Source: a virus (taxonomy: Duplodnaviria; Caudoviricetes). From it: a DNA stretch of 64,000 nt. The stretch is from the IMG/VR virus record IMGVR_UViG_3300021387_001106, positions 34,633 through 98,632 of that record; one strand, given 5' to 3'. The position numbers and the translations under genes were made by a program. Shown piece after piece: positions 13,620 to 44,392 of the stretch. The notes beneath the pieces were generated by a model. The model was not told the origin of the DNA. It did not search any database and worked only from the letters and a program-made list of their open reading frames with translations. The first letter of the stretch is position 1. Each line of letters begins with the position of its first letter.

Positions 13620-16052
13620 ATGGCGAAGAAGACGATAAAGATTACTGCGCAGAAAGGGCCGCAGTGGGACTTCCTTGGAACGGAAGCTGATATATGCATA
13701 TACGGCGGAGCAGCGGGCGGCGGAAAAGCAATGCCGCTCTCGGAACCGGTACTGACTACCCGTGGGTTCATTCCCATGGGTAGAGTTAGGATTGGGACAG
13801 AAGTCCGTACACCCGACAATGGTACAGCAAAGGTTATCCAGATACATCCTCAGGGTGTGGTGGATACCTACAGGATAAGGTTCTCGGACGGAGCCGAAAC
13901 GGTTTGCACCGCTGACCATCTGTGGATGTCAAGGGTGTCTCGTGTCCCTGACAGCGACAAGGTACGAACTACGGCGGAGATTAAGCGGCTCATAGATGTA
14001 GAGAGGAAGAACGTCTTCATACCACTTTGCTCACCGATAGAGTTCGACAGGGAAGTAGAACTCCCCATAAAGCCGTATATGCTCGGTGTACTGATAGGGG
14101 ACGGGTACCTGTGCAGGTATACGATTACCATTACCAAAGGCGATATGGAAGTGTTCGACCGTATCAGGGAGGACGGCTACAGCCTGACAAATTACTGTGG
14201 GAACCATCCCGAGCGTACACCTGAATATGGGGTGAAAGACTTCAAGGAAGAGAAGAAGTGGCTCACAGAGAAAAAGCTCAGGTGCAAAGGGTACAAGAAA
14301 TATATCCCGAATGAATACAAATACGCGTCCATCCAAGACCGCATAGACCTGATACAGGGGCTTATGGATACGGATGGTTACGCTGATAAACATGGCAACT
14401 GTTCCTTCTCAACCACGTCGAAGCGGCTGGCAAATGACGTGCAGTGGATAATCCGTTCACTGGGCGGCAGGGCCAAGATAACGAGCAAGATACCTTCCTA
14501 TACACGCAAGGACGGCACAAAGAAGAAGTGCAGAAGAGCCTATATCGTACATGTTCGGATGCCTGACAACTCCATACTGTTCAGCCTCCCGAGAAAGAAA
14601 AAGCGGTGTGAAGTCACCTATAAAAGAAAGCATCCACAGGGACAGGGCAGAAGGATTGCTTCGATACTTTGGGACGGGGAGAAGGAATGCCAGTGCATCA
14701 CCCTTGACAACGAGCAGGGACTGTATCTGACAAGGGACTTCATCGTCACGCACAACAGCTATGGGCTATTGCTCAGCCCGCTGATGTACAAGGGCGTGAG
14801 AGGGTTCAATGCTGTTGTCTTCAGAAGAACATTCAAGCAGATATTCTCACCCGGCAGCTTGTGGGATATGGCGCATGAGATATATTCCCTCATTCCGAAC
14901 GCTCAAATGCGAAAAGTTGCGGCATCTTGGGAGTTCGTTGATAAGGCGGGGGACGTCATATCGAAAGTAACATTTGCACATATAGAGAACTATAGCGCTG
15001 TTGACGACTGGAAGGGCAGCCAGTTATGCGAGATATGCTTCGATGAGGTGACTCATTTTGGTGAGGACACCTTCTTCTATATGTTGTCCCGTAACCGCTC
15101 TACGTGCGGCGTTAAGCCATTTGTAAGGGCAACCTGCAACCCTGACGCTGATTCATGGGTCGCCAAATTCATAGAATGGTGGATAGATCAGGACACTGGA
15201 TACCCTATACAGGAACGGAGTGGGAAGCTCCGATGGTTCGTCAGACGGGACGGTATTATCAACTGGGCCGATACAAAAGAAGAGCTGTGGGAAAGGTTCA
15301 ATCTTCAGACACCCGAGGAACGGGATGAACCACGGTCAGTTACCTTCATAATGTCGAGTATCTACGACAACAAGGAACTGCTGAAGGTCAACCCGCAGTA
15401 CCTGTCTTCACTGAAAGCGCTCCCGGAGGTTGAACGTGAACGTCTGCTGAAAGGGAACTGGAAGATCAAGTCCACAGCCGGTACGTATTTTAAAAGAACA
15501 CAGATTGAGCTTGTGCTTGATGAACCATCCGACATACAGCAGTATTGCAGGGCGTGGGACCTTGCCGCGTCATCGGACAAGGAGAGCGGAGACCCTGACT
15601 ATACAGCCGGGGTTCTGGCTGGTCTTAGGAAGGATAAATCCGTTGTAATCCTTGACGTCATTAACAAAAGGGTACCGGCATCGGATGTTGAACGCCTGAT
15701 ATATAACACGGCTGTTGCTGACAGGAAAAAATACGGCCTCAAATGCAAGATACGGATACCGCAGGACCCGGGAGCAGCAGGGAAAATTGTTGCGCAGAAC
15801 TATATAAAAATACTGTCTGGATTTCCAGTTAAGGCTATTCCCGTGTCAGGAAGCAAAGAACTGAGGGCAACGCCTGTTGCCGCCCAATGGCAGGTCGGAA
15901 ATATATATGTTCTGGCGGCAGAATGGAACGATATGTATTTCACTCAGCTTGAAAGTTTTCCTCAGGGCGCACATGACGATATGGTGGACGCAACATCTGA
16001 TGCTTTCAACGAACTATCGAAGCCGACATTTGAACTGAAGAACCTTTTGTAG
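13620..16052 (+). CDS. terL: terminase large subunit containing an intein
   Basis: Walker A GGAAGGGK/S, Walker B ICFDE, TCNP, RAWDLA, HDDMVDA. Confidence 0.93.
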   Translation: MAKKTIKITAQKGPQWDFLGTEADICIYGGAAGGGKAMPLSEPVLTTRGFIPMGRVRIGTEVRTPDNGTAKVIQIHPQGVVDTYRIRFSDGAETVCTADHLWMSRVSRVPDSDKVRTTAEIKRLIDVERKNVFIPLCSPIEFDREVELPIKPYMLGVLIGDGYLCRYTITITKGDMEVFDRIREDGYSLTNYCGNHPERTPEYGVKDFKEEKKWLTEKKLRCKGYKKYIPNEYKYASIQDRIDLIQGLMDTDGYADKHGNCSFSTTSKRLANDVQWIIRSLGGRAKITSKIPSYTRKDGTKKKCRRAYIVHVRMPDNSILFSLPRKKKRCEVTYKRKHPQGQGRRIASILWDGEKECQCITLDNEQGLYLTRDFIVTHNSYGLLLSPLMYKGVRGFNAVVFRRTFKQIFSPGSLWDMAHEIYSLIPNAQMRKVAASWEFVDKAGDVISKVTFAHIENYSAVDDWKGSQLCEICFDEVTHFGEDTFFYMLSRNRSTCGVKPFVRATCNPDADSWVAKFIEWWIDQDTGYPIQERSGKLRWFVRRDGIINWADTKEELWERFNLQTPEERDEPRSVTFIMSSIYDNKELLKVNPQYLSSLKALPEVERERLLKGNWKIKSTAGTYFKRTQIELVLDEPSDIQQYCRAWDLAASSDKESGDPDYTAGVLAGLRKDKSVVILDVINKRVPASDVERLIYNTAVADRKKYGLKCKIRIPQDPGAAGKIVAQNYIKILSGFPVKAIPVSGSKELRATPVAAQWQVGNIYVLAAEWNDMYFTQLESFPQGAHDDMVDATSDAFNELSKPTFELKNLL
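13728..14756 (+). mobile_element. class 3-type intein (Ala1) with LAGLIDADG homing endonuclease, 343 aa
   Basis: Starts AMPLSEPV, block B CTADHLW, block F ECQCI, ends FIVTHN/S; LGVLIGDG and QGLMDTDG motifs. Confidence 0.9.
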
Positions 16053-16482: not shown

Positions 16483-17022
16483 ATGAAAGCGGATTGGCTC
16501 AATAGGAAAGTCGAAAAAATCAGAAGTTCTATGTTAGAGCGGTCGGACGGTGGCCCCGGCAGTGGTAACTGGGGACACGTCGGAAGGCCAGGGGAACCCG
16601 GTGGCTCCCAAAAAGGCGGTGGGAAAGCGTTCCGCATGGTGAATGTAGTAAAGAACACATATACATCACAGCCGAAGATCAGGCAGGCTGCCAAGCAGCA
16701 GTATAAGAACGCAAAACTGTCTGGCAGCGCCAAGCTGCTCGCAAAGGCGCAGAAGCGCATGAAGAGCATCAACACGAACATAAAGACCGCTGATGTCAGG
16801 AAGGCCGGCAAGAAGGGCTATCAGGTCGTCAATGAGATCGACGAAAATGCAAGCAGAAATATCCTGAAGGACAAAAAGCGCGGCAAGTCGGCAAGGGAAA
16901 ACAACCTGATGAAGGTAAAGGGAACGAATGAGACGATCAAGTACACATTCCCGAACCGGGTCACAAGGGGCGGCTCTGGCAAACGTGGTGGCAAGACCAC
17001 TGTGCGGAGAGCGAAAAACTGA
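16483..17022 (+). CDS. highly basic protein with RSD-GGPGSGNWGH motif (putative head cargo)
   Basis: AAGGAGG RBS; motif shared with the ORFs at 22088 and 23297. Confidence 0.7.
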   Translation: MKADWLNRKVEKIRSSMLERSDGGPGSGNWGHVGRPGEPGGSQKGGGKAFRMVNVVKNTYTSQPKIRQAAKQQYKNAKLSGSAKLLAKAQKRMKSINTNIKTADVRKAGKKGYQVVNEIDENASRNILKDKKRGKSARENNLMKVKGTNETIKYTFPNRVTRGGSGKRGGKTTVRRAKN

Positions 17023-17037
17023 TAAAGGAGGAAGGCA

Positions 17038-17337
17038 ATGCCCGATGTTGAAAAATTATCATACGAGGTAGCGATGCTGGCAAGGAGTTTCACGCCGGCT
17101 GAGATGGAAGTGTTTGAAACACTGCTCGATTATACCGAGACGCTTCCAGAAGGTTTCTTTAGTGATAAGACTCTGGAAGAGCTCAACGAGCATTTCGGCG
17201 GCCATGACGACATGGTGGTCACAGAGAAGGTCCGCACCGCGCTTGACAAACAACAGATGGTTGACCTCATGATGGACGCGATGATGCAGATATACGATGA
17301 CCTTCCCGAAGATGACGAGGATGAAGACGAAGAGTAA
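17038..17337 (+). CDS. small acidic protein
   Basis: AGGAGG RBS. Confidence 0.7.
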   Translation: MPDVEKLSYEVAMLARSFTPAEMEVFETLLDYTETLPEGFFSDKTLEELNEHFGGHDDMVVTEKVRTALDKQQMVDLMMDAMMQIYDDLPEDDEDEDEE

Positions 17338-17373
17338 CATCACGCAACAAAAACCGACAAAAATGGACATGGA

Positions 17374-17398
17374 ACAGGGCTGAAAAGCCCTGTTTTTT
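17374..17398 (+). terminator. intrinsic terminator
   Basis: acagggct-gaaa-agccctgt plus T run. Confidence 0.75.
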
Positions 17399-17460
17399 GT
17401 TACCTAAGAAAAAAGCGGCAGGAGTACGGTAAAGATTATCACTCGCCGTAAGGAGAGAGC

Positions 17461-20400
17461 ATGGCAAGCAGGAAGGAAAAAATCGACTCGCTCAGGCGCT
17501 ACACGAACTTAATACAGAAGCAGACCGGCAGAGTCGTAAGACCCTACCGCATGGACGGCTATGTCAACATGCTCACCAAGTACGGCACGTCCCGTGATGC
17601 TTCGGAAAGATATGAGTTTAAACAGGAACCACCGGTACCGGATGAACAGCTCACTTCCTTCTACGAGGGGAACGGACTGTTCGCCAAGATCATAGACGCA
17701 CCGGCGGAAGAGGCCATCAAACACGGCTTTGAGCTGGAAGGGCTTCAGGACCAGAACATCGAGGACTTCTACACGGAAGCACTTGAAGAGCTGGACTGGG
17801 AAGAGACCATGATGACAGCAGTCAAATGGGCAAGGCTTTTTGGCGGTTCCATCGCTGTCATGATGATCAATGACGGCAGGGGTGTTGATGAGCCTCTCGA
17901 CTGGAAGAACATCACATCTATCGACGACATCAGGATATATGACCGTTCCCTAATACAACCAGACTACGGAAGCATGTTCTCCTACGACCCGGACGACCCG
18001 TTCGGGACAAGGGGGAGCCGGTTGGGTATGCCTGAATACTACGATGTCTACAGCCGGTACGGGAGCTTCCGGGTGCACGACTCCAGATGCCTTGTATTCC
18101 AGAACGGTATACTCCCTGAGAACACGAGCAATTCTGTCTATCAGTTGTGGGGTATGCCGGAGTACATCAGGCTCAACAGGGCGATACGTGACGCTGAGGT
18201 CGCACACGGAACGGCTCCAAAGATGCTCGACCGCTCCATACAGGCGGTCTACCGGATGAAAGACCTTGCAACAGAACTTGCTACAGAGGAAGGCGAGGAC
18301 AGGGTTCTCAGGCGTCTACAGACCATCGACATGGCAAGGGGGCTTTTAAACTCCATCACCATCGACAGCGAGGGCGAGGATTACGACTTCAGGCAATTTT
18401 CATTTACCGGCGTTTCCGAGGTCATCGACACGACATGCAACTTCCTGTCTGCATTGACTTCCATCCCACAGACCATCCTGTTCGGAAGGTCACCCGCCGG
18501 TATGAACTCCACGGGCATGGGAGACCTTGAGAACTGGTACAACTACCTTGAACGCATCCAGAACCGCATGATAAAGAAGAACCTGAGGTATCTTCTGAGC
18601 ATCATCTTTCAGGCGGGCGTATGTACCGGTGAGATAGATGAGGTCCCACCTATCAAGGTCAAGTTCAACCCGCTGTGGTCACTGTCCGATCAGGAAGAGG
18701 CGTCCCTTGAACAGATGAGGGCGCAGGTTGCGAACACCAATGCCAACACCGCTATGGTCTACGTCCAGATGCAGGCGCTCGACCCTTCTGAGGTCAGAAA
18801 GAAACTTGCGGATTCCGAGGAGTTTGATGTTGAGACTCTGCTCGACGAATATACCGAGGAGGAACTGGAAGAAAACGACCCTATGAAGAAACAGGCGGAA
18901 GGTGCTATGCCGGGTATGGAAGGCGGCGGTATGCCGGGAATGCCGGGGATGCCTGCAATGCCCGGTGGACCGGAAGGAGCACCGCCTGAAGGGGCACCGC
19001 CACAGGCACCGGATGCTATGGGCGGAACACCTACTGGAAAGGTTCAGCCTAATGACGGCCCTAAACCCGAAATGGCGCAGGGCGGCAAAGAAAAGGATAC
19101 GGATATTGGCGGGAACGCCCCGGCTGCTGCACCGGCAGCAACAAAACTTCCTGTTGATATGAGCGGGAAGGAAAAGGACAAAGCAGAGGAAGCTAAGGAA
19201 GAGCTCAAGAAGCCTGTAGACAAGGCTAAAGACAACACTCAGGAATCGACAGCTAAGCCAGAAGAAAAGGCAGAAGATGCAGAGGACACTCTGCGCAATG
19301 CATGGCTTGGTGTCGGGCCTGAAGAAGAAAAGCCCTCTGATAAAAAGATTATCAAAAAGCCAAAAAAGCCCGTCGACCCGCTCCCGGGGGATACCCTTCG
19401 GAACGCGTGGCTGGGAATCACTCCAAAAGAAGAAGAGGATGAGGAGGACACGCTCACAAAAGCATGGCATGGAACAGAACCGGTCGATACTGAGGATACG
19501 CTCAGGAACGCATGGCTCGGTAACATTCCCGTGAAACCGCCTCATGGCTCCAGGATCGTCCGTACACGCAAGGGGGATATTTCTATCAGGGACTTCCGTG
19601 CGGCGTCCAGAGAGGACGAAGAGAACCCTCTGACGGCAATGTACGACCATGAGATCACCGCCAGAAATGGCAAGACCTACAGGGCGTTTGAGGGCGAAGG
19701 CTACAAAGCCTATGGCGAGAGGATGCGTGAAAGCTCCCGTATGGATGCGGGTGCGCAGGGTGCAGTCGGCGTGTATGTCATCAAGGATGGCAAGATACTG
19801 ACAGGCATTCGTGGTGAAGGGGATGGACAATACCTTCTCTGCGGTCCCGGCGGACACATCGAAGAAGGTGAGACCCCCGGACAGGCTGCAATACGCGAGA
19901 CACAGGAAGAGTTTGGTATCACACCCATGGAGCTTATCCCGTTCGGGAAAGGGGAAAAGCAAAGCAACGGTCTACGGCCTGACCTGTTCCTATGTGTCAG
20001 GTTTGAGGGGAAACCCAAGTGCGATGAACACGAGATGCACAATCCGAGGTTCACAGCCATCGAAGAGATCGAGCACTCGGGCCGCCTGTTCAGGCCGTTT
20101 GAAAACGGCATCCAGAAGCTGATACAGGCAGTTACTGGAAAGAACATCCACGCAGATGATGAAAAGTGGATTACTGTCAACGGAACACACGTACTTGTTG
20201 ATGATGATGGAACCGCTAAAAACGGCGGCAAGCTCAAAGGAATGTCTTTTTCAAAAGCCGAGAGCGAGGAAAGCGCAAAGCAGACCAATGCTCCCGGCTC
20301 AAATAAAATACTCTTCCAACCGTCAAAGACTAAGATTAACAGGGAAATCTCTGATATAGCGGATAAGAGCACGCAGGATACGGTTGAAGATGACATTAAG

Positions 20401-21633
20401 AAGATTGGGAAGCTGCTTGACACACTTGAACCCGGCTCCGTAGTCACTGTCCCGGCAAATCTTGCGGGGGATGATAAGTACACCTATACAAAAGATGAAG
20501 ATGGAAGATGGGGTGGAAAAGGCACCAACGGAACATGGAAAGCTGAGGACATCGCGTGGGATTTTCTCTATGAAGACCCGAGGGAACGCGCATATATCAG
20601 CAAGTCCGCATTATCGGAAACTGAGAAAGAAAAAGACAGACAGAGCTATGAGGCACGGAATTTCCGCAATCAGGAATCCCCGTGGGCCGGTGACAACTCA
20701 TTGGCTCAAATGGCTGAGGTACAGCTTCAGAGGGAAGACCTGAAGAAAGCCGGTGAAGGCACCGTAGCGGTCGATAAGGATGGAAGACAGCTCCAATGCC
20801 ACGGAGATGGCGTATGGACAGACAGGGACGGAAACATCGTGAAGAATCCATCCGGGCTGAAAGTGGAAGGTGACTACTTCGATATAAACTGCGGATTGAA
20901 CGGCATGGATCCTATCGAAATAAGCAAGGTCAGGGACGTGTTCGATAAAATGCCACCGGATATTCAGGGTATATACGAAAAAACCTTCAGGGAACATGGC
21001 GTAAGACCGTCTGAGGAAGGATGGGACATCTCATATTTCAAACCGTCAGATGGCCGTGTATATCTCCGCGAGGGGTCGTCAGCGGGCACCTTCTTCCACG
21101 AGATGAGCCATGCGCTTGACAGAGGGGCCGTAGACATAGAGTACGTAAAAGAAAACGGAGAGAAATACAGGGTGACGTCTGCGGCGGAAAACCTTGACTG
21201 GCTTGCGCATCCGCTTAAAGAAAAGGGAAGAGAAGACTTCGAGACGATGGCAAAAATCGTCGGATTTAATACTAACGGGAAGGGATGGTTCGCCAACGAG
21301 AAAGAAGAACAGGCGTCCGTCCGACAGTTCATCGACTGGGCATATAAGTATTCCGATATACCGGGATTTGAATGTGTCAGCGATGCAGTAAGCGCAATGA
21401 CATATGACGTATGCGGGGCAAGCATATACTCTGGCGGTCATGACAGGCAGTATTGGACAGGCTCGTACCTTCAGGGCAGAAAGACATCTGCAACGAGCGA
21501 TGAATACTGGGCGAATTTCTGTGAACTTAAAGCGATGCGCTACGATACTGCTCTAAAACTCCTGAAAGTCATTACGCCGAACAGATATGCTGCGGCAGAG
21601 GCGACCTACAAAGAAGCCTTTAAGAAGAGGTAA
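17461..21633 (+). CDS. portal protein (DUF1073-like) fused to Nudix hydrolase and HExxH metallopeptidase-like domains
   Basis: N-terminal ~480 aa portal-like (KIIDAPAEEA, ARLFGGS, IPQTILFGRSPAG, FNPLW); Nudix box GGHIEEGETPGQAAIRETQEEFG; FFHEMSHALD. Confidence 0.85.
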   Translation: MASRKEKIDSLRRYTNLIQKQTGRVVRPYRMDGYVNMLTKYGTSRDASERYEFKQEPPVPDEQLTSFYEGNGLFAKIIDAPAEEAIKHGFELEGLQDQNIEDFYTEALEELDWEETMMTAVKWARLFGGSIAVMMINDGRGVDEPLDWKNITSIDDIRIYDRSLIQPDYGSMFSYDPDDPFGTRGSRLGMPEYYDVYSRYGSFRVHDSRCLVFQNGILPENTSNSVYQLWGMPEYIRLNRAIRDAEVAHGTAPKMLDRSIQAVYRMKDLATELATEEGEDRVLRRLQTIDMARGLLNSITIDSEGEDYDFRQFSFTGVSEVIDTTCNFLSALTSIPQTILFGRSPAGMNSTGMGDLENWYNYLERIQNRMIKKNLRYLLSIIFQAGVCTGEIDEVPPIKVKFNPLWSLSDQEEASLEQMRAQVANTNANTAMVYVQMQALDPSEVRKKLADSEEFDVETLLDEYTEEELEENDPMKKQAEGAMPGMEGGGMPGMPGMPAMPGGPEGAPPEGAPPQAPDAMGGTPTGKVQPNDGPKPEMAQGGKEKDTDIGGNAPAAAPAATKLPVDMSGKEKDKAEEAKEELKKPVDKAKDNTQESTAKPEEKAEDAEDTLRNAWLGVGPEEEKPSDKKIIKKPKKPVDPLPGDTLRNAWLGITPKEEEDEEDTLTKAWHGTEPVDTEDTLRNAWLGNIPVKPPHGSRIVRTRKGDISIRDFRAASREDEENPLTAMYDHEITARNGKTYRAFEGEGYKAYGERMRESSRMDAGAQGAVGVYVIKDGKILTGIRGEGDGQYLLCGPGGHIEEGETPGQAAIRETQEEFGITPMELIPFGKGEKQSNGLRPDLFLCVRFEGKPKCDEHEMHNPRFTAIEEIEHSGRLFRPFENGIQKLIQAVTGKNIHADDEKWITVNGTHVLVDDDGTAKNGGKLKGMSFSKAESEESAKQTNAPGSNKILFQPSKTKINREISDIADKSTQDTVEDDIKKIGKLLDTLEPGSVVTVPANLAGDDKYTYTKDEDGRWGGKGTNGTWKAEDIAWDFLYEDPRERAYISKSALSETEKEKDRQSYEARNFRNQESPWAGDNSLAQMAEVQLQREDLKKAGEGTVAVDKDGRQLQCHGDGVWTDRDGNIVKNPSGLKVEGDYFDINCGLNGMDPIEISKVRDVFDKMPPDIQGIYEKTFREHGVRPSEEGWDISYFKPSDGRVYLREGSSAGTFFHEMSHALDRGAVDIEYVKENGEKYRVTSAAENLDWLAHPLKEKGREDFETMAKIVGFNTNGKGWFANEKEEQASVRQFIDWAYKYSDIPGFECVSDAVSAMTYDVCGASIYSGGHDRQYWTGSYLQGRKTSATSDEYWANFCELKAMRYDTALKLLKVITPNRYAAAEATYKEAFKKR
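19282..19524 (+). repeat. four EDTLRNAWLG-type peptide repeats in the portal linker
   Basis: EDTLRNAWLG, GDTLRNAWLG, EDTLTKAWHG, EDTLRNAWLG. Confidence 0.85.
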
Positions 21634-21638
21634 AACGA

Positions 21639-21845
21639 ATGGATAACTATATGGCTGATATGATGCGCAAGCGGGGGTTTCCGTACACGGCAGATTATAT
21701 CGAGATGTTCGGCATGGACAACATGAACCCGTGGTTCAGGAACGGCGCGAATGAAAAGACAGAAGCATTTTACAAGCAGTGCGTTGAGGAAAAGCGGCCA
21801 TGGGACTATTTTATTGACCCGCCAGACGATGACGTTGTGCTCTGA
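21639..21845 (+). CDS. small acidic protein
   Basis: GAGG RBS overlapping the portal stop region. Confidence 0.6.
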   Translation: MDNYMADMMRKRGFPYTADYIEMFGMDNMNPWFRNGANEKTEAFYKQCVEEKRPWDYFIDPPDDDVVL

Positions 21846-21861
21846 ATGATCGGAGAAGGAT

Positions 21862-22068
21862 ATGTATATACCGCATTATGATACAAAGGCAGACAGGTTG
21901 CCATCGGACGCCACTGCTGAAGAAAAGGGAAGGTTCGAGCGCAGCCACAATGGCTATGGATGGATGCTTTTTTATAAGGAGCTTTATCCAGACCTGTCTG
22001 TCCCATATATGCGGTGGGATGGTAAGGTAATTGACAGCACATGGCTGTCCTTTTTTGATGCCGTCTAA
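21862..22068 (+). CDS. small hypothetical protein
   Basis: GGAG/AAGG RBS, 68 aa. Confidence 0.55.
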   Translation: MYIPHYDTKADRLPSDATAEEKGRFERSHNGYGWMLFYKELYPDLSVPYMRWDGKVIDSTWLSFFDAV

Positions 22069-22087
22069 CCTGTTACAGGAGATGACT

Positions 22088-23251
22088 ATGGAACGGATAC
22101 AGGCGATAAAACTGAAATCCATACAGATACGCTATCGACTCAGACAGAGGATGGACGGCGGCCCGGGTTCTGGCAACTGGGGGCACGAGGGGAGACCCGG
22201 CAAGATCGGCGGATCGGCGGAAGGCGGCGGCACACATAACCGACAAAAGAACAGGTTCGGCGGCTATACCTCGTTCAGCAAATGGAGAAAAGAATCTGCG
22301 AGGAGCCACGCGCTTACGAGTCAGGACATAAAGGATGTCTACGACTTCGAAGACATTATCATTGTCGACAAAGACGGAAACCGATACCAGAGGAGCGGGC
22401 ACAACTTTGAGTGCAAAACGACCGGGGATAGAAGGGATTTCGCTATTGGGGATGAATGCCGGCTCATCATCCCGAACAAGCTCAGTCCGAATTACAAGGT
22501 CACCCGCGATGATAAGAAGGCAATGGCCTTGAATCAGGAACGGTTTGAAAGAGCGTTCTACCCGGAGGAAAGAGGCGATGCCGATACCAGATACAGGTCT
22601 GAAGCCGGGGAAATATGGAATGGATGCAGCGAAAAAGAAAAAGATTCCATGTATAGATATACCTCGTCGGAGTATAGGAGGATAAACAAAAATGTTCGCG
22701 GCGGTAATACCGATGACGAGGAGTGCAACGAGACCATAGCAGCTATCACGGATGTGATAGACAGGTCCGAATTGAGACAGGATAGTGTCCTCAGGAGAGG
22801 AATATCGCTGGGAGCCGCTGAGAAACTGTTCGGGCTGCCAGAGGGGTATCTGGAGGCCGGCAATCATGCCGATGAAGGGAACATCTCCATGGTCGGCAGG
22901 GTCGGAACTGATGATGCGTTCATGAGCTGCGGTTCATCCCGAGATTCCGGGAATGACCGTCAGGTTGTTCTGGAGATTCTGGCTCCTGAGGGAACCAAGG
23001 CCATGTATTGTGAACCGTTTTCCGCGCACGGCTTGGGTGACAGAAAACTGTGGGACGGGAAAAGCGGACAAGAATACTTTTCCTCTGAATGCGAGAGCCT
23101 TTTGCAAAGAGGAACCACTCTACAGGTCATCAGCCACGAGATGAAGGACTCGTTTGGGTTTACATACCATACGATGAGAGCGGTTATTTTAAGGCAGGAT
23201 ACAGGAAGTTCTGAATACAGTCAAAAGATAAAAAAGGCAAAGTGGAATTGA
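22088..23251 (+). CDS. VIP2/C3-like ADP-ribosyltransferase with RMD-GGPGSGNWGH leader
   Basis: YTSSEYRRIN..., LRRG, FMSCG, SECESLLQRG (R-S-ExE). Confidence 0.75.
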   Translation: MERIQAIKLKSIQIRYRLRQRMDGGPGSGNWGHEGRPGKIGGSAEGGGTHNRQKNRFGGYTSFSKWRKESARSHALTSQDIKDVYDFEDIIIVDKDGNRYQRSGHNFECKTTGDRRDFAIGDECRLIIPNKLSPNYKVTRDDKKAMALNQERFERAFYPEERGDADTRYRSEAGEIWNGCSEKEKDSMYRYTSSEYRRINKNVRGGNTDDEECNETIAAITDVIDRSELRQDSVLRRGISLGAAEKLFGLPEGYLEAGNHADEGNISMVGRVGTDDAFMSCGSSRDSGNDRQVVLEILAPEGTKAMYCEPFSAHGLGDRKLWDGKSGQEYFSSECESLLQRGTTLQVISHEMKDSFGFTYHTMRAVILRQDTGSSEYSQKIKKAKWN

Positions 23252-23296
23252 TTTCAGACACGTATTATCAAAAAACCCGCTATAGGAGAACAGGAT

Positions 23297-24406
23297 ATGC
23301 CATCAATTCAGAATGACTTGAAAAGGATCCGCCTTTCCCTTAAAAAACGAAGAGAAGACGGATATACGGGAGAAAAAACATGCACAGGCGCATATAAAAC
23401 GCATGGGAAAATTGACCGGGGGGCCGCAAGTGCTATAATAAAGTTGAAGGGGGGGAAGGTACGGGCAGATAGCTGCCAAAAAGGACAAGCGGACGGCGGA
23501 CCGGGAAGCGGAAACTGGGGACATGAAGGCAGGGACACAGGTGAACCCGGCGGTTCAAAGCCCGGTGGCGGAAAGAAAAACAGGACATACCGCAATAAAA
23601 TAGGTTTCATTGCAACAATGAAGAAAGGAGACGCTAAACTTCTCGAACGGACAGACAGAAAGGTGGCTAAGATGAGGAAAAAGCTCCCCGGGCTCATGAA
23701 AGAAAGCCATGAAACATGGGAAAGCTGTGTAGCCGCCAGCAAAAGCGGGTCTTCAATCCCTTCCGGGTCTGAGGCAAGAAAAGACAGAGTTTTAAAAGGG
23801 CTTTCGCCGGGGGCACAGAAAAGGTATGACCGAGTTTTCGAAGCAGAACAAAGGATAACAAAAGACCTTATCGGCATTGCGTCCGACAGTGGAACTGAGA
23901 TGTACGGCTTGGATTTTTCGCTGAAGAAGGGTTCCTCTGTGGTAGAGAAGGTCGCAAGGAAAAGAGCGGCGGATATTGCGCGTGAACTTAAACCTAAAAC
24001 AGACGAAGAATATGTATCTCAACTCGGGGACCTTGTCAGGTACACACAACTTTGTGACCATAACAAGATGGCAGACGTCGCAAAGGGCACGCTGTCTTCA
24101 CTGAAGGCAAAAGGATATGACGTAGTCGAGGTAGACAACAAGTGGCAGGATGAGAAGTCCACATACAAAGGATTTCACATAATCGCAAAGGATAAGAACG
24201 GACAGCGGTTTGAACTCCAGATACATTCGAAAGAGAGTATGGATGTCAAGGAGCTTAACCATGTGCAATATGAAGTTGCAAGGCAGCCAAAAGCCAGCGC
24301 TTATGTCAGGGATACGCTCGACCCACAAATGGCTGAAAGAACTGCAAAAATGAAGAAGCCAAAAGGGATGAACGATCCCGCCTTGAAGTCGTGGAAAAAT
24401 GAATGA
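23297..24406 (+). CDS. RelA/SpoT-family nucleotidyltransferase (small alarmone synthetase-like)
   Basis: KKGSSVVEK, DLVRYT, YKGFH, FELQIH correspond to SYN1-4-like motifs. Confidence 0.75.
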   Translation: MPSIQNDLKRIRLSLKKRREDGYTGEKTCTGAYKTHGKIDRGAASAIIKLKGGKVRADSCQKGQADGGPGSGNWGHEGRDTGEPGGSKPGGGKKNRTYRNKIGFIATMKKGDAKLLERTDRKVAKMRKKLPGLMKESHETWESCVAASKSGSSIPSGSEARKDRVLKGLSPGAQKRYDRVFEAEQRITKDLIGIASDSGTEMYGLDFSLKKGSSVVEKVARKRAADIARELKPKTDEEYVSQLGDLVRYTQLCDHNKMADVAKGTLSSLKAKGYDVVEVDNKWQDEKSTYKGFHIIAKDKNGQRFELQIHSKESMDVKELNHVQYEVARQPKASAYVRDTLDPQMAERTAKMKKPKGMNDPALKSWKNE

Positions 24407-24958: not shown

Positions 24959-25801
24959 ATGACAGAATACAAGAGCTTTTTCAAAACTGTCGGGGGCAAC
25001 GAGGGCAACAAGTGCCACTACCCGACAAGACTTGATAGCTACGGGTGTGGCTGCGCACATGACTGCAAATACTGCTATGCAAGGTCGCTGCTGGAGTTTC
25101 GCGGGCTGTGGCGTCCCGAGGACCCGTCTGTTGCTGATATAGGCAAGATACGGCGTAAATTGGATAAAGTGGAACCGGGGACGATATTGAGGCTCGGCGG
25201 AATGACAGACTGTTTTCAGCCGATGGAACGCAAACTGGCCATCACATATCAGGTGGTCAGGGAACTGAACAAGCGCCGTATCGGGTACCTGATCGTGACG
25301 AAATCCGCCATGGTTGCGGATGACCGGTACATCGGTGTCTATGACCCGGAACTTGCCCATATACAGGTGACCATTACGGCAACAGATGATGCCGTGGCGC
25401 TTGGATACGAGAAAGCGAGTCCAATTTCAGAGCGTATCAAAGCAGTCGAGAAGCTACAGATGAATGGTCTGGACGTGGCCGTAAGGCTTTCTCCATTCAT
25501 ACCTGAGTATGTAGATTTTGATGTTCTGAACAGCATCAAATGTGACAAGATACTTGTGGAGTTCCTCAGGTCAAATGCCTTTATCCGAAAGACATTCCCA
25601 ATAGACTACTCGGAATACACGGTGAAGCAGAACGGATACTGGCACATGTCGCTCGACAGGAAGAAATACTGGCTATCAAAGATAACGGGTTTCAACGAGC
25701 TGACGGTATGTGATGACGAGACAGAAGCATACGAATATTGGAAACAAAACGTCAACCCGAATCCTGATGACTGCTGCAATCTTCGGAAGGTTGCAATCTG
25801 A
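24959..25801 (+). CDS. radical SAM protein (spore photoproduct lyase-like)
   Basis: GCAHDCKYCYA (CxxxCxxC), GGMTDCFQP, IVTKS, RLSPFIP. Confidence 0.8.
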   Translation: MTEYKSFFKTVGGNEGNKCHYPTRLDSYGCGCAHDCKYCYARSLLEFRGLWRPEDPSVADIGKIRRKLDKVEPGTILRLGGMTDCFQPMERKLAITYQVVRELNKRRIGYLIVTKSAMVADDRYIGVYDPELAHIQVTITATDDAVALGYEKASPISERIKAVEKLQMNGLDVAVRLSPFIPEYVDFDVLNSIKCDKILVEFLRSNAFIRKTFPIDYSEYTVKQNGYWHMSLDRKKYWLSKITGFNELTVCDDETEAYEYWKQNVNPNPDDCCNLRKVAI

Positions 25802-25880
25802 AGGAAGAACTCAAAGAACATAGACGATGAACTATGGGACAGCAATGACTGTTCTTTTTTTTGCACAGAAGGAGGCGCGG

Positions 25881-31130: not shown

Positions 31131-31131
31131 T

Positions 31132-34448: not shown

Positions 34449-35381
34449 ATGGAAAACAGGATTGATAAAACCATCGCGAGAATCAGAAAAGACCATAGAA
34501 CCCGAATGGACGCTGAGGAAAAATGGATAACGGTCAATGGAACACATGTAAAGGTCGATAAAGAGGGAGAGCTTAGTGGGGCAGTTGGCAAGAAGATAAG
34601 CTCCACATCAAAGACTACAAAGAAGTCATCCGGGCCTTCTAAAAAAGGTGTTTCCTCAGCAGCAAAGAGGATTACTGACATCATTAAAAAGATAGATGAT
34701 GGCAGTGTCCCGGATATGAGTGGAGCTGAACAGATCATGGATGAAGTAAAAAATCTACCAGATGGTTCAGTTATAAATCTTTCACTTTTCGGCAGTGATA
34801 TGGAATACACGAAAGGCAACGGGGGGTGGACAACGAACGGCGTTGATGTAGACGTGGATGAGCTTTTTAACGACATTTACGATGGAAAAAATCTAAAAAT
34901 AACACAGGGCAAAAAAAGCGAGAAAAATGGTAAGAATGCTTATTCGCCCGGATTAAAAGGGTACAACAAACTTATAGAAGACACGATGTCGAAAAAAGAG
35001 CCTGCGGAAAGAAGGGCATTTCTTGAAGCAAATGCACACTGGCTCAATGGAAAGCCAAAAGAATCGACAGACTACATAAAAAATCCTGACAACATGACTA
35101 AGAATCAAATGCTTGATGCCGCAAGTGATATTGCATACAAGGGGCAACCCGGGGACGTAATAGAAGTAAAGACGAAAGATCGCGGTGGAATTACATCAAC
35201 GTCAAGGTATATAAGAACTGACAAATATAACTGGATAGACGAAGGACAACTCTATAATTTAATGAATAATGCAACCGCTGGAAGACAAAATAAGTCTTCT
35301 CAAAATGAAATGTTTAGGGAAATTAAATATTTCATTGATAACGGAGAAATGCGTGGAATGAAATTTCACCGGTATTCATGA
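34449..35381 (+). CDS. putative head cargo protein (RMD + WITVNG motif), function unknown
   Basis: GGAGG RBS; TRMDAEEKWITVNGTHV. Confidence 0.7.
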   Translation: MENRIDKTIARIRKDHRTRMDAEEKWITVNGTHVKVDKEGELSGAVGKKISSTSKTTKKSSGPSKKGVSSAAKRITDIIKKIDDGSVPDMSGAEQIMDEVKNLPDGSVINLSLFGSDMEYTKGNGGWTTNGVDVDVDELFNDIYDGKNLKITQGKKSEKNGKNAYSPGLKGYNKLIEDTMSKKEPAERRAFLEANAHWLNGKPKESTDYIKNPDNMTKNQMLDAASDIAYKGQPGDVIEVKTKDRGGITSTSRYIRTDKYNWIDEGQLYNLMNNATAGRQNKSSQNEMFREIKYFIDNGEMRGMKFHRYS

Positions 35382-35444: not shown

Positions 35445-36860
35445 ATGAAACCTATTCAGCGGATAAAGCTCGATACCATCCGCATCAGACACTCTTATAA
35501 GAGAATGGACGCGGATGATGATACCCAGTGGATTACCATTAACGGTGCGCATGTCCCAATAGATACAGGGGGGAATCTCAGGGGAAGCGTCGGAAAGAAA
35601 ATAGCCAAGACTTCGACTGGTAAAAAGTCGTCTGGTGGTGGAAGCAGCTGGAAAAGGTCTGCCGACAAAGTACCTACGACAGCAAAGTGGGGAGGCGCTT
35701 CTGGCTCAAAAAAAACTGGTAGCAACAGTTCCGTAGGTCACGAAATGACTGGACATACTGGTAATCGTTATCAAGAAAGCGGAACGGAAAAAGGGAATCC
35801 ATATTCCACAGTGGCGGCTTCGAGGCCAAAGAAGAAAACCGTATATGGCAAGATGAAGGACAGCGAGTTTGTTCCAAGTGGGAGCTGGACTGAGAGAAAG
35901 CTCATAAAGGAGAATACAGCCAAGTCATCTTCAAACTCTGGCACCGGCAAATTCAAGATGCCAAAAAGCGGAAAAACAGGGATAACTCACCCAAATGGAT
36001 CAGAGGCGTCTCAGGAAGACATTGTTGATGCTGTAGAGTATATGAAAGGAACAGGGGACAAGGCTTCACTCAGAAAAGACATTGAGGCCGGTAAGTTCTC
36101 GAAGAAAGAGATCGAGAGATGCCTGGACTATCACGCCACAAAAGGGATTCCTTCCAGTAAGAAAAACTCATATTTTAAAAAACTTCAAAACGAAAGGAAC
36201 GGAGCTGAATCGTCGGAGAAACGACAGAGCACCACTAAAAATCCACACCTAAAAGATGGATGGGGAGACACTTACAGACATACCCCGGGGGCTGGAAGCA
36301 CATTTCAGGGATTATTCAAAGATGGAAAGCGTGTCGGGTATATTGAACACTGGGAAGATGATGGTGACCATGGGTATTCCGTCTATAAAGACGACAATAC
36401 ATTCTTAGGCGGTTTTCGTTCGGCAGATAAAGCAAAAAAAGCGCTGGAAAAAGAAGCAGGAAAAAGCAGGACAAAAAAAGCAGTTGAGGCACCTGCATAT
36501 TCCGGGCCCCGGTCCGGTGACAAAAAGCTGGATTCTCAGTTTGATAAGACCCGGCAAGCACTTGCTGAATGGGAGAAAGCTAAACAGGATGAGCAAAAAG
36601 CGTACAAAAGAGTATGCAGAAAACTTGGGATAAAAGAGACGAGACAAGAAAGCATACACAGTTCTTCCAATCAGGCAAAAGTAAGGGCCGCAAAAGACCC
36701 GAACCTGATCGCCGCTGAAAAAGCGAGCGAGAACGCGATGTCAAAACATGCGAGGGCCACAAGCGAATTGAAAAAGCAGTATGGGGAGTATAGGAAGAAC
36801 GGCGGAAAAGCCATAAGCGAATACTACAGCGCAGCAAGAGAATGGGATGATTATGATTAA
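35445..36860 (+). CDS. putative head cargo protein (RMD + WITING motif), basic
   Basis: AAGGAG RBS; KRMDADDDTQWITINGAHV. Confidence 0.7.
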   Translation: MKPIQRIKLDTIRIRHSYKRMDADDDTQWITINGAHVPIDTGGNLRGSVGKKIAKTSTGKKSSGGGSSWKRSADKVPTTAKWGGASGSKKTGSNSSVGHEMTGHTGNRYQESGTEKGNPYSTVAASRPKKKTVYGKMKDSEFVPSGSWTERKLIKENTAKSSSNSGTGKFKMPKSGKTGITHPNGSEASQEDIVDAVEYMKGTGDKASLRKDIEAGKFSKKEIERCLDYHATKGIPSSKKNSYFKKLQNERNGAESSEKRQSTTKNPHLKDGWGDTYRHTPGAGSTFQGLFKDGKRVGYIEHWEDDGDHGYSVYKDDNTFLGGFRSADKAKKALEKEAGKSRTKKAVEAPAYSGPRSGDKKLDSQFDKTRQALAEWEKAKQDEQKAYKRVCRKLGIKETRQESIHSSSNQAKVRAAKDPNLIAAEKASENAMSKHARATSELKKQYGEYRKNGGKAISEYYSAAREWDDYD

Positions 36861-37094: not shown

Positions 37095-37129
37095 GGCTGC
37101 CAAGATTGCCCTGTAAGGCGCTTAAAGAC

Positions 37130-38044
37130 ATGGATGGTACAAATTATCAAGATAAGGCCCAGAACCTCGTACAGAGGAAATTCGGACGCAAGAAAAGGAT
37201 GAAAAGCAGGTACGCACCACGGTACCCGTCAAGTGCTGAGCGTGAGTACAGGCGCATCAACAGCGCGTATGTACAGATACTCGATAAGACGCTGGAGAAG
37301 CAGCTCCCTTCCATCCTGAAAGCCTATGAGAAACAAATGCGCAAGGACAGCCACGAGGACGGTGTCTTTGATTTCCTTCCGTTCCTTCGAAAGAAGATAC
37401 ATGCCATGGCGGACACGATAGCAAAAGCCATGGAAAGATTTCGGTTGCAGGAACAGATCGGGAAGATAGGGCGCATGGTTCAGGAGAGGTCTATCACCGA
37501 ATGGGGGTCAGCCCTAAAGAGCACCCTTGACATTGACATACCTGCGGATAAATACAGGGAAGGTGCATATGAGCAGGAGATGCAGAGATGGATTTCCGAC
37601 AATTACAACTATGTCAGGAACATACCTGTAGACACTCTGCTTGAGATTGAGAACCTGATAGCAGATGCTTTCCGGGACGGTGTTGACATAGACGTTCTCG
37701 AAGAGGAAATTCGGAACCGGCTCGATAAAGCGTTCAACAGGGGGCAGTTTGCAGCGATAAGTCAGGTGTCCTCACTGAATGCTTACATGATGAAGTCCTT
37801 CCAGACCGGGGCCGGCGTAAAGAACTACGTATGGATTTCATGCCGGGACGACAGGGTCAGGGAAAGCCACCGCTCATTTGACGGAAAGACGTTCTCATGG
37901 GATGACCCGCCAGAGGATTGGTACCGGACAAAGGAACGAGGGGTCGTCAGGACCGGGAAGAGATACAATCCCGGGGAAGCACCCGGGTGCAGGTGCTGTG
38001 CTGTTCCTGTGTTCGACAAGAAAACATTTGAGATTCCAAAGTAA
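37130..38044 (+). CDS. MuF / SPP1 gp7-like minor head protein (no C-terminal toxin)
   Basis: YVWISCRDDRVRESH...FSWDDPP...PG...CRC. Confidence 0.85.
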   Translation: MDGTNYQDKAQNLVQRKFGRKKRMKSRYAPRYPSSAEREYRRINSAYVQILDKTLEKQLPSILKAYEKQMRKDSHEDGVFDFLPFLRKKIHAMADTIAKAMERFRLQEQIGKIGRMVQERSITEWGSALKSTLDIDIPADKYREGAYEQEMQRWISDNYNYVRNIPVDTLLEIENLIADAFRDGVDIDVLEEEIRNRLDKAFNRGQFAAISQVSSLNAYMMKSFQTGAGVKNYVWISCRDDRVRESHRSFDGKTFSWDDPPEDWYRTKERGVVRTGKRYNPGEAPGCRCCAVPVFDKKTFEIPK

Positions 38045-41178: not shown

Positions 41179-42771
41179 ATGAAACTGAAAAGGGTGATAC
41201 GCCTTGACAGTATGCCACTAAACCGGGCGTCATTTACACCGGAAGGATTCCTGATGGATACGCCTATACTGACGTGTACGGGTATCTTTGAATACACAAA
41301 TCCTGACGGCTCTGTGAGAAAAGAACTTCGTTTGCCAGAGGAGGTCTTTTCGAAAGAAAGCCTTGCGTCCTATGAGGGTTCGCCAATCATCATAAGCCAT
41401 GACGCAGGGTTGATCACAAAGGACAATGTCGCTGAGAATGAGATAGGAACCATTCTGACGAAAGGCTTCCGTGACGGAGACAATGTCAGGGCAAAAATCG
41501 TAATCCATGACACGGACGAGATGAAGGAAAGTGGACTGAAGGAACTTTCCCTTGGCTACAACCTTGACCTCGATGAAACTCCCGGGGAATGGAACGGAGA
41601 ACCGTATGATGCGGTTCAGCGGAATATCCGCATAAACCATCTGGCACTTGTCAGAGAGGCAAGGGCCGGGGAACAGGCACGTTTGAACATCGATGGCAAA
41701 GGTGCTGAAAAGAAAGGAGAAGACATAATGGGTTACAGAAAACTGACCAAGACCAGAACAAGGGCAAAGACAAGAAGAGTGAGACGCTCTGATGGCATTC
41801 TCTCTCCTGATGAGCTGAAAGAGGCGATCAAGGAGTACAGGAAACGTCATCCCGAAGCCGGTCAGGGCGGCAACAAGGATGAGGATGACGAAGAGAAGAA
41901 ATATGCGATCCCCGCTGTTGAGCAGGACGACGACGATGTCTCCCCTGAGGAAGCAGCAGCCGAGAAGATCAGGCAGGAAATGCAGGCGAAGCTCGATGCC
42001 GAGGAGGATGACCTCGCTCAGGCAAACGAGACCATTCAGCATCAGGACGAGGACATCCAGACCCTTCTGGACATCATCGACACCCTGCTTGCGGAGCGCG
42101 ATTTCAACGGCTCCAAGACTGATTCCGACGATGAGACTCTCCCCACTGAGGAAGAGAACACCGATGAAGATGAGGAGGTGATCCCAGAGGACGAAAACAC
42201 CGACGAGGACGAGGAGTTCGCTGACGAGGAGAACACCGACGAGGATGAGGAGTTCACCGACGAGGAGAACACCGACGAGGACGAAGAGTTCCTTGACGAG
42301 GAGAACTCCGACTGCGACGACGAGGAGCTGAAGGAAGACGACGATGAGGAAGAGGAGCTCATCGAGGACGATGCAGACGAGGACATCCCGGATGCAACCA
42401 AGGCCGAGGCTGCCGTGATGAACGCTGACAGCATCGACAGGATCGTCCGTGACCGCGTCAAGCTGGGCATCGTTGCCGACAAGCTGCATCTCCGTGGACT
42501 GGAGAACATGTCCATGAGAGCCGCCAAGAAGGCAGTCATCCGCGTGGTCCGTCCTTCCATCAATCTTGACGGCAAGGGCAACACCTACATCAATGCCATG
42601 TTCGATCTGGCCTGCGATGATGTGAAGGTCCGTTCCCGCAAGACCACCCGGTACCAGAGGAAGCAGATGTTCAACAAGGATTCCCGCAGAGCGGTATCCA
42701 GAAGGGGCAACTCTGCTGAGGATGCACGCAAGAAGATGATCGCGCGTCTTCAGAAGAAGAGAAACAAATAA
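41179..42771 (+). CDS. DUF2213 prohead protease fused to an acidic scaffold
   Basis: [37 protein letters not shown]. Confidence 0.85.
42148..42330 (+). repeat. tandem ~33-36 bp repeats encoding E(E/D)ENTDEDEE in the scaffold
   Basis: About five units visible in both DNA and protein. Confidence 0.85.
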
Positions 42772-43312: not shown

Positions 43313-44392
43313 ATGGCTAAGAAAAGACACACATCCTATGACAGGGCTGACCTGAAAGCCCTTCGTAATTCTGGTATCCCTGCGACCATCATGGCCTCTG
43401 CCGGTACCAGATTTGACAGCGTGGACGACGCGTCTGTCTTCTTCGCTCGTGAACTCGACCACGTCAAGGCACAGTCCTATGACGTTGAGTATCCTGAGCT
43501 GACTGCTCTGTCCCTGTTCCCCCAGACCTCTGAGGCGGATGAAGGCGCAGAGACCATTACCTACTACACCTACGATAACGTCGGTCTCGCGAAGGTTCTG
43601 GACAACTACTCCACCGACCTTCCCAGAGCAGACGTGATCGGTAAGCCCAGCTTTGCAAGCATCAAATCCATCGGTGACAGCTACGGCTACTCCGCACAGG
43701 AGATGCGTGCATCCCGGCTGGCCGGCAAGTCCCTTGACGCAAGAAAAGGTGAATCCGCTCGTTATCAGGTCGACAACCTGATCAACCGTATCGCATGGGC
43801 CGGTGACAAGGGCTCCGGTCTGATGGGCGTCCTGTCTGAGGGCCAGAACATCCCTCTCTATCTTGTCGCAGCCGGCGGCACCACTGGCAAGACCAAGTGG
43901 ACCGAGAAGAGCGCAGACGAGATTCTGGACGATGTCAACGGCATGGCGAAGCAGGTCGCAAAGGTGACCAAGAACGTCGAGCGCCCCGACACCCTGTGTG
44001 TCCCTGCTGACGTTTACATGGACATCTCCACCAGACGTATCCCGGATACAAGCACCACCGTCCTGAAGTTCGTTCTGGATCACGCTCCCTACATCAAGGA
44101 AGTCATCTCCACCGCCGAGCTGGATGCTGATTCCCCTGAGACCAACCCTTATGCAGTGACCGGCGTCACCTATGAGGTTGACGGCCAGAACTTCACTACC
44201 ACTGAGGGCGTGGGCGTTGCGTTCCTGTTCAAGAACGACGTTCGGAAGCTGGCACTGGAGAACCCTATGCCCTTCCGCCAGTATCCGATCCAGGTCCGCA
44301 ACCTTGACACCGTTGTCCCCTGCGAGGCAAGGACTGCCGGTGTTATCGTTTACTACCCTCTGTCCTGCCTGATCGCGGTCGGCGTCTGCTGA
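43313..44392 (+). CDS. major capsid protein (DUF2184-like)
   Basis: FFARELDHV, DLPRAD, YGYSAQE, ends VYYP; strong codon bias; followed by a terminator. Confidence 0.9.
   Translation: MAKKRHTSYDRADLKALRNSGIPATIMASAGTRFDSVDDASVFFARELDHVKAQSYDVEYPELTALSLFPQTSEADEGAETITYYTYDNVGLAKVLDNYSTDLPRADVIGKPSFASIKSIGDSYGYSAQEMRASRLAGKSLDARKGESARYQVDNLINRIAWAGDKGSGLMGVLSEGQNIPLYLVAAGGTTGKTKWTEKSADEILDDVNGMAKQVAKVTKNVERPDTLCVPADVYMDISTRRIPDTSTTVLKFVLDHAPYIKEVISTAELDADSPETNPYAVTGVTYEVDGQNFTTTEGVGVAFLFKNDVRKLALENPMPFRQYPIQVRNLDTVVPCEARTAGVIVYYPLSCLIAVGVC

Follow-up and report, generated by a model that had tools for sequence, protein, structure and literature searches.

What role might one short, glycine-rich peptide play in three proteins with unrelated C-termini? 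This question is raised by the phage DNA analyzed here, a stretch of 64 kb (referred to as the window) that forms the right-hand part of the 98.6-kb IMG/VR virus record IMGVR_UViG_3300021387_001106, which is rated 96% complete and represents a gut/rumen phage whose closest cultured relative is Faecalibacterium phage FP_Brigit (capsid-protein identity 58.7%). The peptide, here called the “G-box”, follows an Asp and reads GG-P-GSG-N-W-GH-x-GR-(P)-G-xx-GGS. A six-frame pattern search found exactly three copies in the window, all on the plus strand, which encodes every gene of the window, with the Asp codons at 16546, 22154, and 23492; the back-translated DNA pattern gave three matches, against 0.00 expected from 100 dinucleotide-preserving shuffles. 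The first-pass annotation of this DNA had recognized the tag, as D-GGPGSGNWGHxGR, in a basic protein, an ADP-ribosyltransferase (ART), and a RelA/SpoT-like protein, and both the pattern search and the family matches bear this out. We propose, with a rough probability of 0.6, that the G-box may represent the first 20 residues of a mature, capsid-packaged module built in the order leader, protease cut, G-box, linker, and effector.

In any pair of copies, identical residues are encoded by 12-13 degenerate codons, of which 8-9 are different, with Ser codons swapping between AGY and TCN, and copy 3 departs from the others by a one-residue insertion (R-D-T-G in place of R-P-G). As synonymous sites are near saturation while the peptide is kept, selection acts on the G-box peptide. 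The divergence between copies rules out a recent DNA duplication as the origin of the motif, and the possibility, raised with the initial observation, that the motif is a mere duplication remnant with dN/dS near 1 clearly fails; what was suspected to be a peptide-level signal common to unrelated cargo proteins of the head module is upheld. The same evidence speaks against the G-box as a functionless flexible linker, or as a recombination joint hitch-hiking with shuffled effector cassettes, which was already disfavored and which we hold to be very improbable: although orthologous polyproteins have different cargo behind the junction, which means that cassettes are exchanged there, the peptide is invariant where synonymous sites are near saturation, across thousands of clusters, and in 35 ART homologs (see below), a degree of conservation that is not seen in ordinary linkers.

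The three bearers differ in how well they can be assigned to families. The ART matches PF03496 (E 3.1e-16, 59.8 bits vs. a cut-off of 23.4), its AlphaFold2 (AF2) model has a mean predicted local distance difference test (pLDDT) of 84.9, and its top Foldseek matches are CDTa, VIP2, and C3 (E ~1e-12, probability 1.00). In an alignment of 35 homologs (A5), the invariant Arg, Ser, and Glu columns R238, S281, and E335/E337 are taken to be the R-S-ExE positions; an identical 387-amino-acid (aa) ART is present in a public collection (P0151). The RelA/SpoT-like protein matches PF04607 below the cut-off of 27 (19.3 bits, E 0.0014), and is matched by PHROG 7625 (E 1.6e-19) and by the solved SaSAS chain 8vx3 (E 9.8e-9). 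Its first leader ends with R-E-D (23357-23359) and a second D site follows at 23492-23494 (residues 21 and 66 respectively), and the protein may thus carry a two-step propeptide. The basic 179-aa protein has no family match in Pfam, PHROG, or NCBIfam, and its ESM Atlas model has a mean pLDDT of 0.45; it is probably disordered.

Beyond the window, we compared a 46-column profile of these copies with 1.84 billion cluster representatives. It matched 2,816 proteins at E<=1e-3, of which 554 reach E<=1e-10 and 44 reach E<=1e-30. The best matches are phage polyvalent proteins of 800-2,700 aa with up to 9-10 matched stretches, the copies within proteins having a median spacing of 225 aa, and in the top matches the G-box always directly precedes an effector, portal-appended, or protease-appended module. 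The general consensus is [variable residue]-GG-P-GSG-N-[F/W/H/Y]-GH-x-GRPG-xx-GGS, whose aromatic position is occupied by Phe more often than by Trp (exact back-translated patterns occur in 55 viral stretches for the Trp form and in more than 114 for the Phe form). The domains behind the G-box include PF03496 ARTs, ART-PolyVal, DRAT, Nudix, PI3/4-kinase-like, and Zeta toxin domains, as well as GNAT, ParB, 2H, and topoisomerase IB. G-box genes adjoin terminase, portal, and MuF genes in several lineages, and the G-box also sits behind portal domains of four Pfam families. In one phage with Leu before the G-box (L-type; L030:7617-8936:+), it lies between a DUF2213 protease-like domain and a C-terminal part of ~100 aa within a single open reading frame (ORF), which indicates that the tag is not restricted to effectors. 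Genomic context was taken from IMG/VR loci, not from the loci of the best profile matches, and since these were retrieved by exact patterns and include paralogs and related phages, the counts of loci given below are not independent events.

The G-box is not covered by any Pfam or NCBIfam model, and no PHROG matches over the motif stretch. No PDB chain contains it (best match E 3.7), and literature searches with motif strings and variants, together with the text of the two most relevant papers, gave no description of it. A tblastn search with the tag and a polyprotein (P0001) against 50,697 phage records returned nothing useful, in which the low-complexity filter may have masked the motif. The G-box is absent from FP_Brigit and from Clostridium phage phiCTP1. 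Taken together, the G-box is apparently a large, undescribed signal of phage capsid cargo. Two individual loci can be mentioned here. A 22-kb IMG/VR contig (L217) has nine G-boxes, each preceded by Lys, in four consecutive genes past terminase and portal; one of these genes encodes anthrax-lethal-factor-like zincin and topoisomerase IB domains, and the record has an S78 protease match. Among the seven contigs of metagenome-assembled genomes (MAGs) matched in a genome-contig scan, which covered the Trp variant only and has little bearing on bacterial distribution, a 52-kb contig with a Trp-type G-box (L062) was binned with a Methanothrix MAG; it may derive from an archaeal virus, or from a phage whose contig was binned wrongly.

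The residue immediately before GG is D in the window phage, and D, K, N, L, A, E, or R elsewhere. It agrees in 93% of within-locus pairs, vs. 20% expected at random. Homologs of the window's DUF2213 protease, MuF protein, and portal were found in 20, 32, and 33 of 51 D-type loci respectively, vs. 1 of 112 other loci. We searched 29 whole virus records bearing the G-box for Pfam protease families, and found that these follow the preceding residue: DUF2213 (PF09979) gives strong matches in D-type genomes and weak ones in four L/A-type genomes, S78/S78_2 (PF04586/PF14550) is present only in K-type genomes (three), and S77 of the T4 gp21 type (PF03420) only in E-type genomes (3/4). None of the others is universal (ClpP and MPTase-PolyVal, PF18818, each 0/29; S49 0/19), and with MuF in 18/29 we rejected a single universal partner or protease. 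The cleavage consensus of T4 gp21 is L/I-x-E, and [L/I]-x-E precedes GG in 27 of 34 E-class sites, next to [R/K]-x-L in 122 of 161 L-class and R-x-A in 60 of 69 A-class sites; at D sites, R-x-D or N-x-D are among the upstream signatures. Proteases of the T4 type cut C-terminal to Glu (PMC5694885). As the tag starts one residue past a lineage-specific residue that tracks the protease, its first position fits P1' of a maturation cleavage site. We read the junction before GG as such a site, where the unprimed side would co-vary with the enzyme and the G-box would occupy P1'-P20'.

The correspondence with protease families also bears on whether the G-box could separate modules by itself, either by autoproteolysis involving its Asn, His, Ser, or Arg, or by a translational skip or pause. 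Viral 2A peptides are similar in length (~20 aa), the G-box is needed at each junction and does not depend on the protease family, and several complete genomes lack a recognizable head protease. However, the Asn position varies (N 354, H 93, F 22, D 14, and Y 13 of 496), the G-box is modeled as unstructured, and the lineage-specific preceding residue and protease-matched signatures argue for an external enzyme. Further, we know of no bacterial precedent for 2A-type skipping, and give self-separation very little credit.

In the model that we prefer, a cargo unit would begin with a lineage-specific leader or, in polyproteins, with the last part of the preceding domain, followed by a likewise lineage-specific cleavage residue, the G-box, a short Gly/Ser linker, and the effector domain. 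Where cargo is encoded by a gene of its own, the leader would bring it into the procapsid, similar to the capsid-targeting sequence (CTS) of T4, and in polyproteins the fusion to portal, MuF, or another module would take over its job. The head-maturation protease would then cut right before GG, as the sequence statistics suggest, either removing the leader or separating modules, and would leave modules of ~150-280 aa with a flexible N-terminal G-box; for the window, cleavage is predicted after each of the three Asp residues. The DUF2213-family protein encoded at 41179..42771 is the candidate enzyme. Our preferred guess is that the G-box is a primed-side substrate determinant that would offer a disordered, accessible, and uniform site before differing domains; beyond this, it may help to retain or eject the individual modules. 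Virion association, ejection, and cleavage of the G-box proteins are inferred, head association being supported by the gene position between terminase and capsid genes and by the portal, MuF, or protease fusions.

Several points weigh against this model. A block of 20 residues far exceeds the known needs of head proteases, so cleavage alone does not explain its conservation, and the cleavage sites of T4 or SPN3US have nothing like it. Five complete genomes of K-, N-, or K/L-type (G001, G009, G010, G013, and G020) lack all six protease families tested, and the closest solved chain to the window's DUF2213 protein, 9b40_G, bears the name scaffolding protein. Since copies within one phage are paralogs, inheritance accounts in part for their agreement in the preceding residue. 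Alternatively, the bond that is cut could be the one after GG, given the similarity of the upstream consensus L-R-x-[K/L/R]-G-G to ubiquitin tails or to the sites of double-glycine leaders, which are helices of 15-30 aa ending with G-G.

No protein begins with the G-box: each of the 110 unique N-proximal cases has a leader of 8-44 aa in front of it, with a median length of 13 aa in K-type, 21 aa in N- and E-type, and 30 aa in D-type cases. For the window ART, AF2 (with 35 homologs) models a helix at residues 2-21, a segment with pLDDT <50 at residues 20-62, and then a well-folded enzyme, and in the A5 alignment the columns from D24 to S44 are invariant at 31-52% overall identity. A segment that is disordered yet invariant is typical of a linear motif read by another molecule. 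That molecule may not be the protease: the G-box itself may dock or package the cargo, at the capsid inner surface, portal, MuF, or DNA, with the W peptide described below serving another partner or timing. This alternative, which we regard as possible although unlikely, is favored by the extreme conservation across differing portal and protease families, which points to a common partner, by the fixed aromatic, His, Arg, and Pro anchors within a disordered linear motif, and by the presence of the G-box on a protease-like protein, which has to get into the procapsid as well. However, the searches revealed no universal partner, MuF being present in 6 of the nine complete genomes among the 29 searched, and the G-box is missing from all solved structures, those of capsids and portals included.

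A separate leader is available as the address. Six window proteins that carry either the G-box or the W peptide share the leader consensus M..xQxIxxxxxRIRxSLRxRMD (alignment A6), and the leader of the ART has 50% identity with one from the W class, vs. 27-35% with the other G-class leaders. Being common to both classes, the leader is the better candidate for a packaging signal like the T4 CTS. In contrast, the tag recurs before every module of the polyproteins and also in portal-fused cargo, for which one address or none would suffice. We therefore suggest that the leader, rather than the tag, is the likelier packaging address. The first-pass annotation was thus partly right in its interpretation, namely on slot and exclusivity, as discussed below, but the address function that it assigned to the tag is probably misplaced.

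The W peptide, W-[I/V]-T-[V/I]-N-G-x-H-[V/I], was found in more than 118 viral stretches. In the window segment 20131-20316, AlphaFold models the W tag as a beta-hairpin (pLDDT ~85), whose strands span residues 12-16 and 19-23 of the 62 aa, in physical contrast to the disordered G tag. At this and ten other W sites, the hairpin is followed by a conserved Gly, and the tag lies 3-6 acidic residues past the D site. The portal-Nudix orthologs of the window and of two other loci (L004 and L003) align by BLASTP up to a helix after the Nudix domain, past which the window has H-A-D, three residues, and the W tag, while L003 and L004 have D and then the G-box; the cargo downstream of this junction is unrelated between the window and L003/L004. 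The claim that the two peptides occupy the same slot thus holds for these orthologs. The claim that they never co-occur in one protein holds as well, in the window and beyond it: among 390 tagged ORFs in the viral loci fetched, 255 are G-only, 112 are W-only, and none has both, and only 2 of 271 loci have both classes. That the two tags are never mixed within one polypeptide also counts in favor of docking, and the two classes may differ in docking partner or in the timing of ejection.

A third tag class, H-P-R-x(2-4)-G-x-F, shares an ORF with the G-box in 5 ORFs and 2 cluster representatives, unlike the W tag. At the junction discussed above, FP_Brigit (L059, 22789-25275) has R-M-D followed by a box of this class, H-P-R-D-x-x-G-Q-F, and an ART homolog (P0201) has a leader of the same type ending with R-M-D, again followed by an H-P-R-type box. 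As a possible although unlikely reading, the G-box, W hairpin, and H-P-R-type box could form a small set of universal cargo-module signals that would dock the released modules to the interior of the HK97-fold shell, the portal channel, or the packed DNA whatever the protease family, with the tag class setting module position or exit time. Such a set would be a phage counterpart of encapsulin cargo-loading peptides, which are short, Gly-rich, disordered, and conserved, and occur on unrelated cargo enzymes of an HK97-fold shell. The G-box shares these features, its shell binding being hypothetical. Encapsulin peptides differ in being usually C-terminal, in having no association with cleavage, and in having no sequence resemblance to the G-box.

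The conservation of the G-box independent of phage head type would also fit a partner in the host or DNA, which would act after ejection: the motif may steer effectors to DNA or the nucleoid through an AT-hook-like G-R-P core, bind another universal host component, or keep an effector inactive until processing. The motif does contain G-R-P-G, D-type phages add a basic G-G-G-x-x-[N/Y]-R stretch after it, and one of the three window bearers is very basic. The residues flanking G-R-P are mostly acidic or hydrophobic rather than basic, though, Pfam scans reported no AT-hook or other family over the motif, and the G-box is also found behind portal and protease domains. On balance we consider a host-side role rather improbable. 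The resemblance to RTX, P-loop, AT-hook, and collagen repeats (five G-X-Y triplets) was discarded, as these readings have the sequence only and no supporting evidence. A radical SAM enzyme encoded in the window (24959-25801) was likewise rejected as a G-box modifier, with homologs in only 4 of ~270 motif loci.

Among the known systems, the closest parallels to the cargo unit proposed above concern its N-terminal part. The internal proteins and Alt of phage T4 carry targeting propeptides of 10-20 aa that are removed by gp21 (PMC7411985). As with the T4 CTS (IPI-III and Alt), a short N-terminal propeptide is common to unrelated, presumably ejected proteins that include an ART, and would end at the site of a protease. 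The genes are likewise part of the head module, and E-type G-box phages have gp21-type proteases and [L/I]-x-E before the tag; in the window, such a propeptide is common to six otherwise unrelated proteins. T4 conserves only the propeptide and nothing past the cut, however, whereas G-box phages conserve a 20-residue block after the predicted cut across lineages and vary in leader and cleavage residue. In SPN3US and phiKZ, the prohead protease cuts many head-internal ejection proteins at a short motif, and the propeptides are thought to target the prohead (PMC5694885, PMC7411985). In these giant phages, which have A-x-E sites, the propeptides are long (20-130 aa) and a shared post-cleavage motif is not reported.

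Polyvalent proteins, which occur in phages and conjugative elements, are predicted to be packaged and processed into units, and embedded zincin peptidases were proposed as the processor (Iyer et al., 2017; PMC5512222). They provide the best profile matches, with ART-PolyVal, ParB, GNAT, 2H, and kinase-like domains, and the three window proteins can be viewed as their single-effector versions. The presence of at least two effector domains beside portal-terminase genes, which is typical of polyvalent proteins, was found in relatives (P0001-P0150) and in the window portal polyprotein. Text searches of PMC5512222 gave no inter-domain punctuation motif, and the embedded zincin-like MPTase (PF18818) that would act as processor is absent from all 29 G-box genomes. 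An H-E-x-x-H stretch occurs near the end of the window portal polyprotein, with no Pfam family over it.

The MuF polymorphic toxins of temperate phages are of the same kinds (RelA/SpoT-like and ART) and are likewise delivered by phage heads (Jamet et al., 2017; PMC5576092). The window RelA/SpoT-like protein is matched by PHROG 7625, which is annotated as ‘head morphogenesis’ and is taken to be a MuF fusion family. The three window G-tagged proteins lack a MuF domain (PF04233), and MuF is encoded by a separate gene; in the window, a leader and G-box would thus replace the covalent MuF fusion. Similar to VENN in CdiA and DPxGL in Rhs, the G-box is a short invariant motif that borders a constant delivery part and exchangeable toxin cassettes, and differs from these and from the double-glycine systems in secretion route and sequence; neither a C39 peptidase nor an Rhs core would take part.

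Proteins coinjected with phage DNA are the first weapons of infection, and are hard to spot because each phage group has its own targeting peptide. A conserved 20-residue tag would give a sequence handle on thousands of candidate capsid-delivered effectors in metagenomes, such as ARTs, alarmone synthetases, kinases, and nucleases, and would also define module borders. It would refine the polyvalent-protein concept, in that processing would be carried out mainly by the head-maturation protease at marked junctions and not by embedded metallopeptidases, and it offers a testable link from head-protease specificity to substrate sites in uncultured phages. As a portable element, the G-box may also allow phage heads to be loaded with foreign proteins.

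The features of the window referred to above are listed in Table 1.

Table 1. Positions of tagged genes, tags, leaders, and surrounding head genes (numbering of the window).
Feature	Position	Strand	Basis or remark
Large terminase (context)	13620..16052	+	ORF list; carries ~380-aa insertion
Basic G-tagged protein gene, 179 aa, isoelectric point (pI) 11.05	16483..17022	+	Directly 3' of large terminase gene
Leader of basic protein, 22 aa, ends R-S-D	16483..16548	+	Translation; leader alignment A6
G-box copy 1, 20 aa, GG to GGS	16549..16608	+	Motif pattern search
Acidic protein, 99 aa, pI 4.05	17038-17337	+	Between basic protein and portal polyprotein
Portal-Nudix-cargo polyprotein, 1390 aa (context); W tag at 20167	17461..21633	+	PF06381 and NUDIX; BLASTP to L004, L003
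G-tagged C3/VIP2-like ADP-ribosyltransferase gene, 387 aa	22088..23251	+	PF03496; AF2; Foldseek
Leader of ART, 23 aa, modeled helix, ends R-M-D	22088..22156	+	AF2; leader alignment A6
G-box copy 2	22157..22216	+	Modeled disordered; invariant in 35 ART homologs
G-tagged RelA/SpoT-like (small alarmone synthetase-like) gene	23297..24406	+	PHROG 7625; PDB 8vx3
G-box copy 3, 21 aa, R-D-T-G variant	23495..23557	+	Motif pattern search
Small ORF	3' of RelA/SpoT-like gene, 5' of radical SAM gene	+	ORF list
Radical SAM protein	24959-25801	+	Between tagged effectors and polyproteins
Two large polyproteins	25827-31130; 31078-34194	+	Further tagged proteins come after
W-class protein, leader of the same type, ends R-M-D	34449..35381	+	Translation; A6
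W-class protein, leader 50% identical to ART leader	35445..36860	+	Translation; A6
MuF-like head morphogenesis protein, separate, unfused to tagged effectors	37106..38044	+	PHROG 324 E 1.2e-48; PF04233 match in G000
DUF2213-family head maturation protease/scaffold	41179..42771	+	PHROG 530 E 1e-80; PF09979 E 1.1e-35
Major capsid protein (context)	43313..44392	+	PHROG 264 E 8e-78

Several neighboring genes have features of their own. The large terminase has 810 aa, and its relatives align only in pieces of ~431 aa. The extra ~380 aa start just past the Walker A glycine-rich loop and end with T-H-N-S, and judging from these borders the insertion looks like an intein with a homing-endonuclease insert. 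Homologs of the acidic 99-aa protein and of the basic G-tagged protein are both present in one other locus (L081, 40 and 42% identity), and the acidic protein may act as a chaperone or neutralizer for a DNA-binding internal protein. The acidic, Pro-rich linker between the portal and Nudix domains (19288-19530) contains 4 copies of T-L-R/T-N/K-A-W-L/H-G, with Asp directly before each, which look like further D-sites with a conserved primed side of their own.

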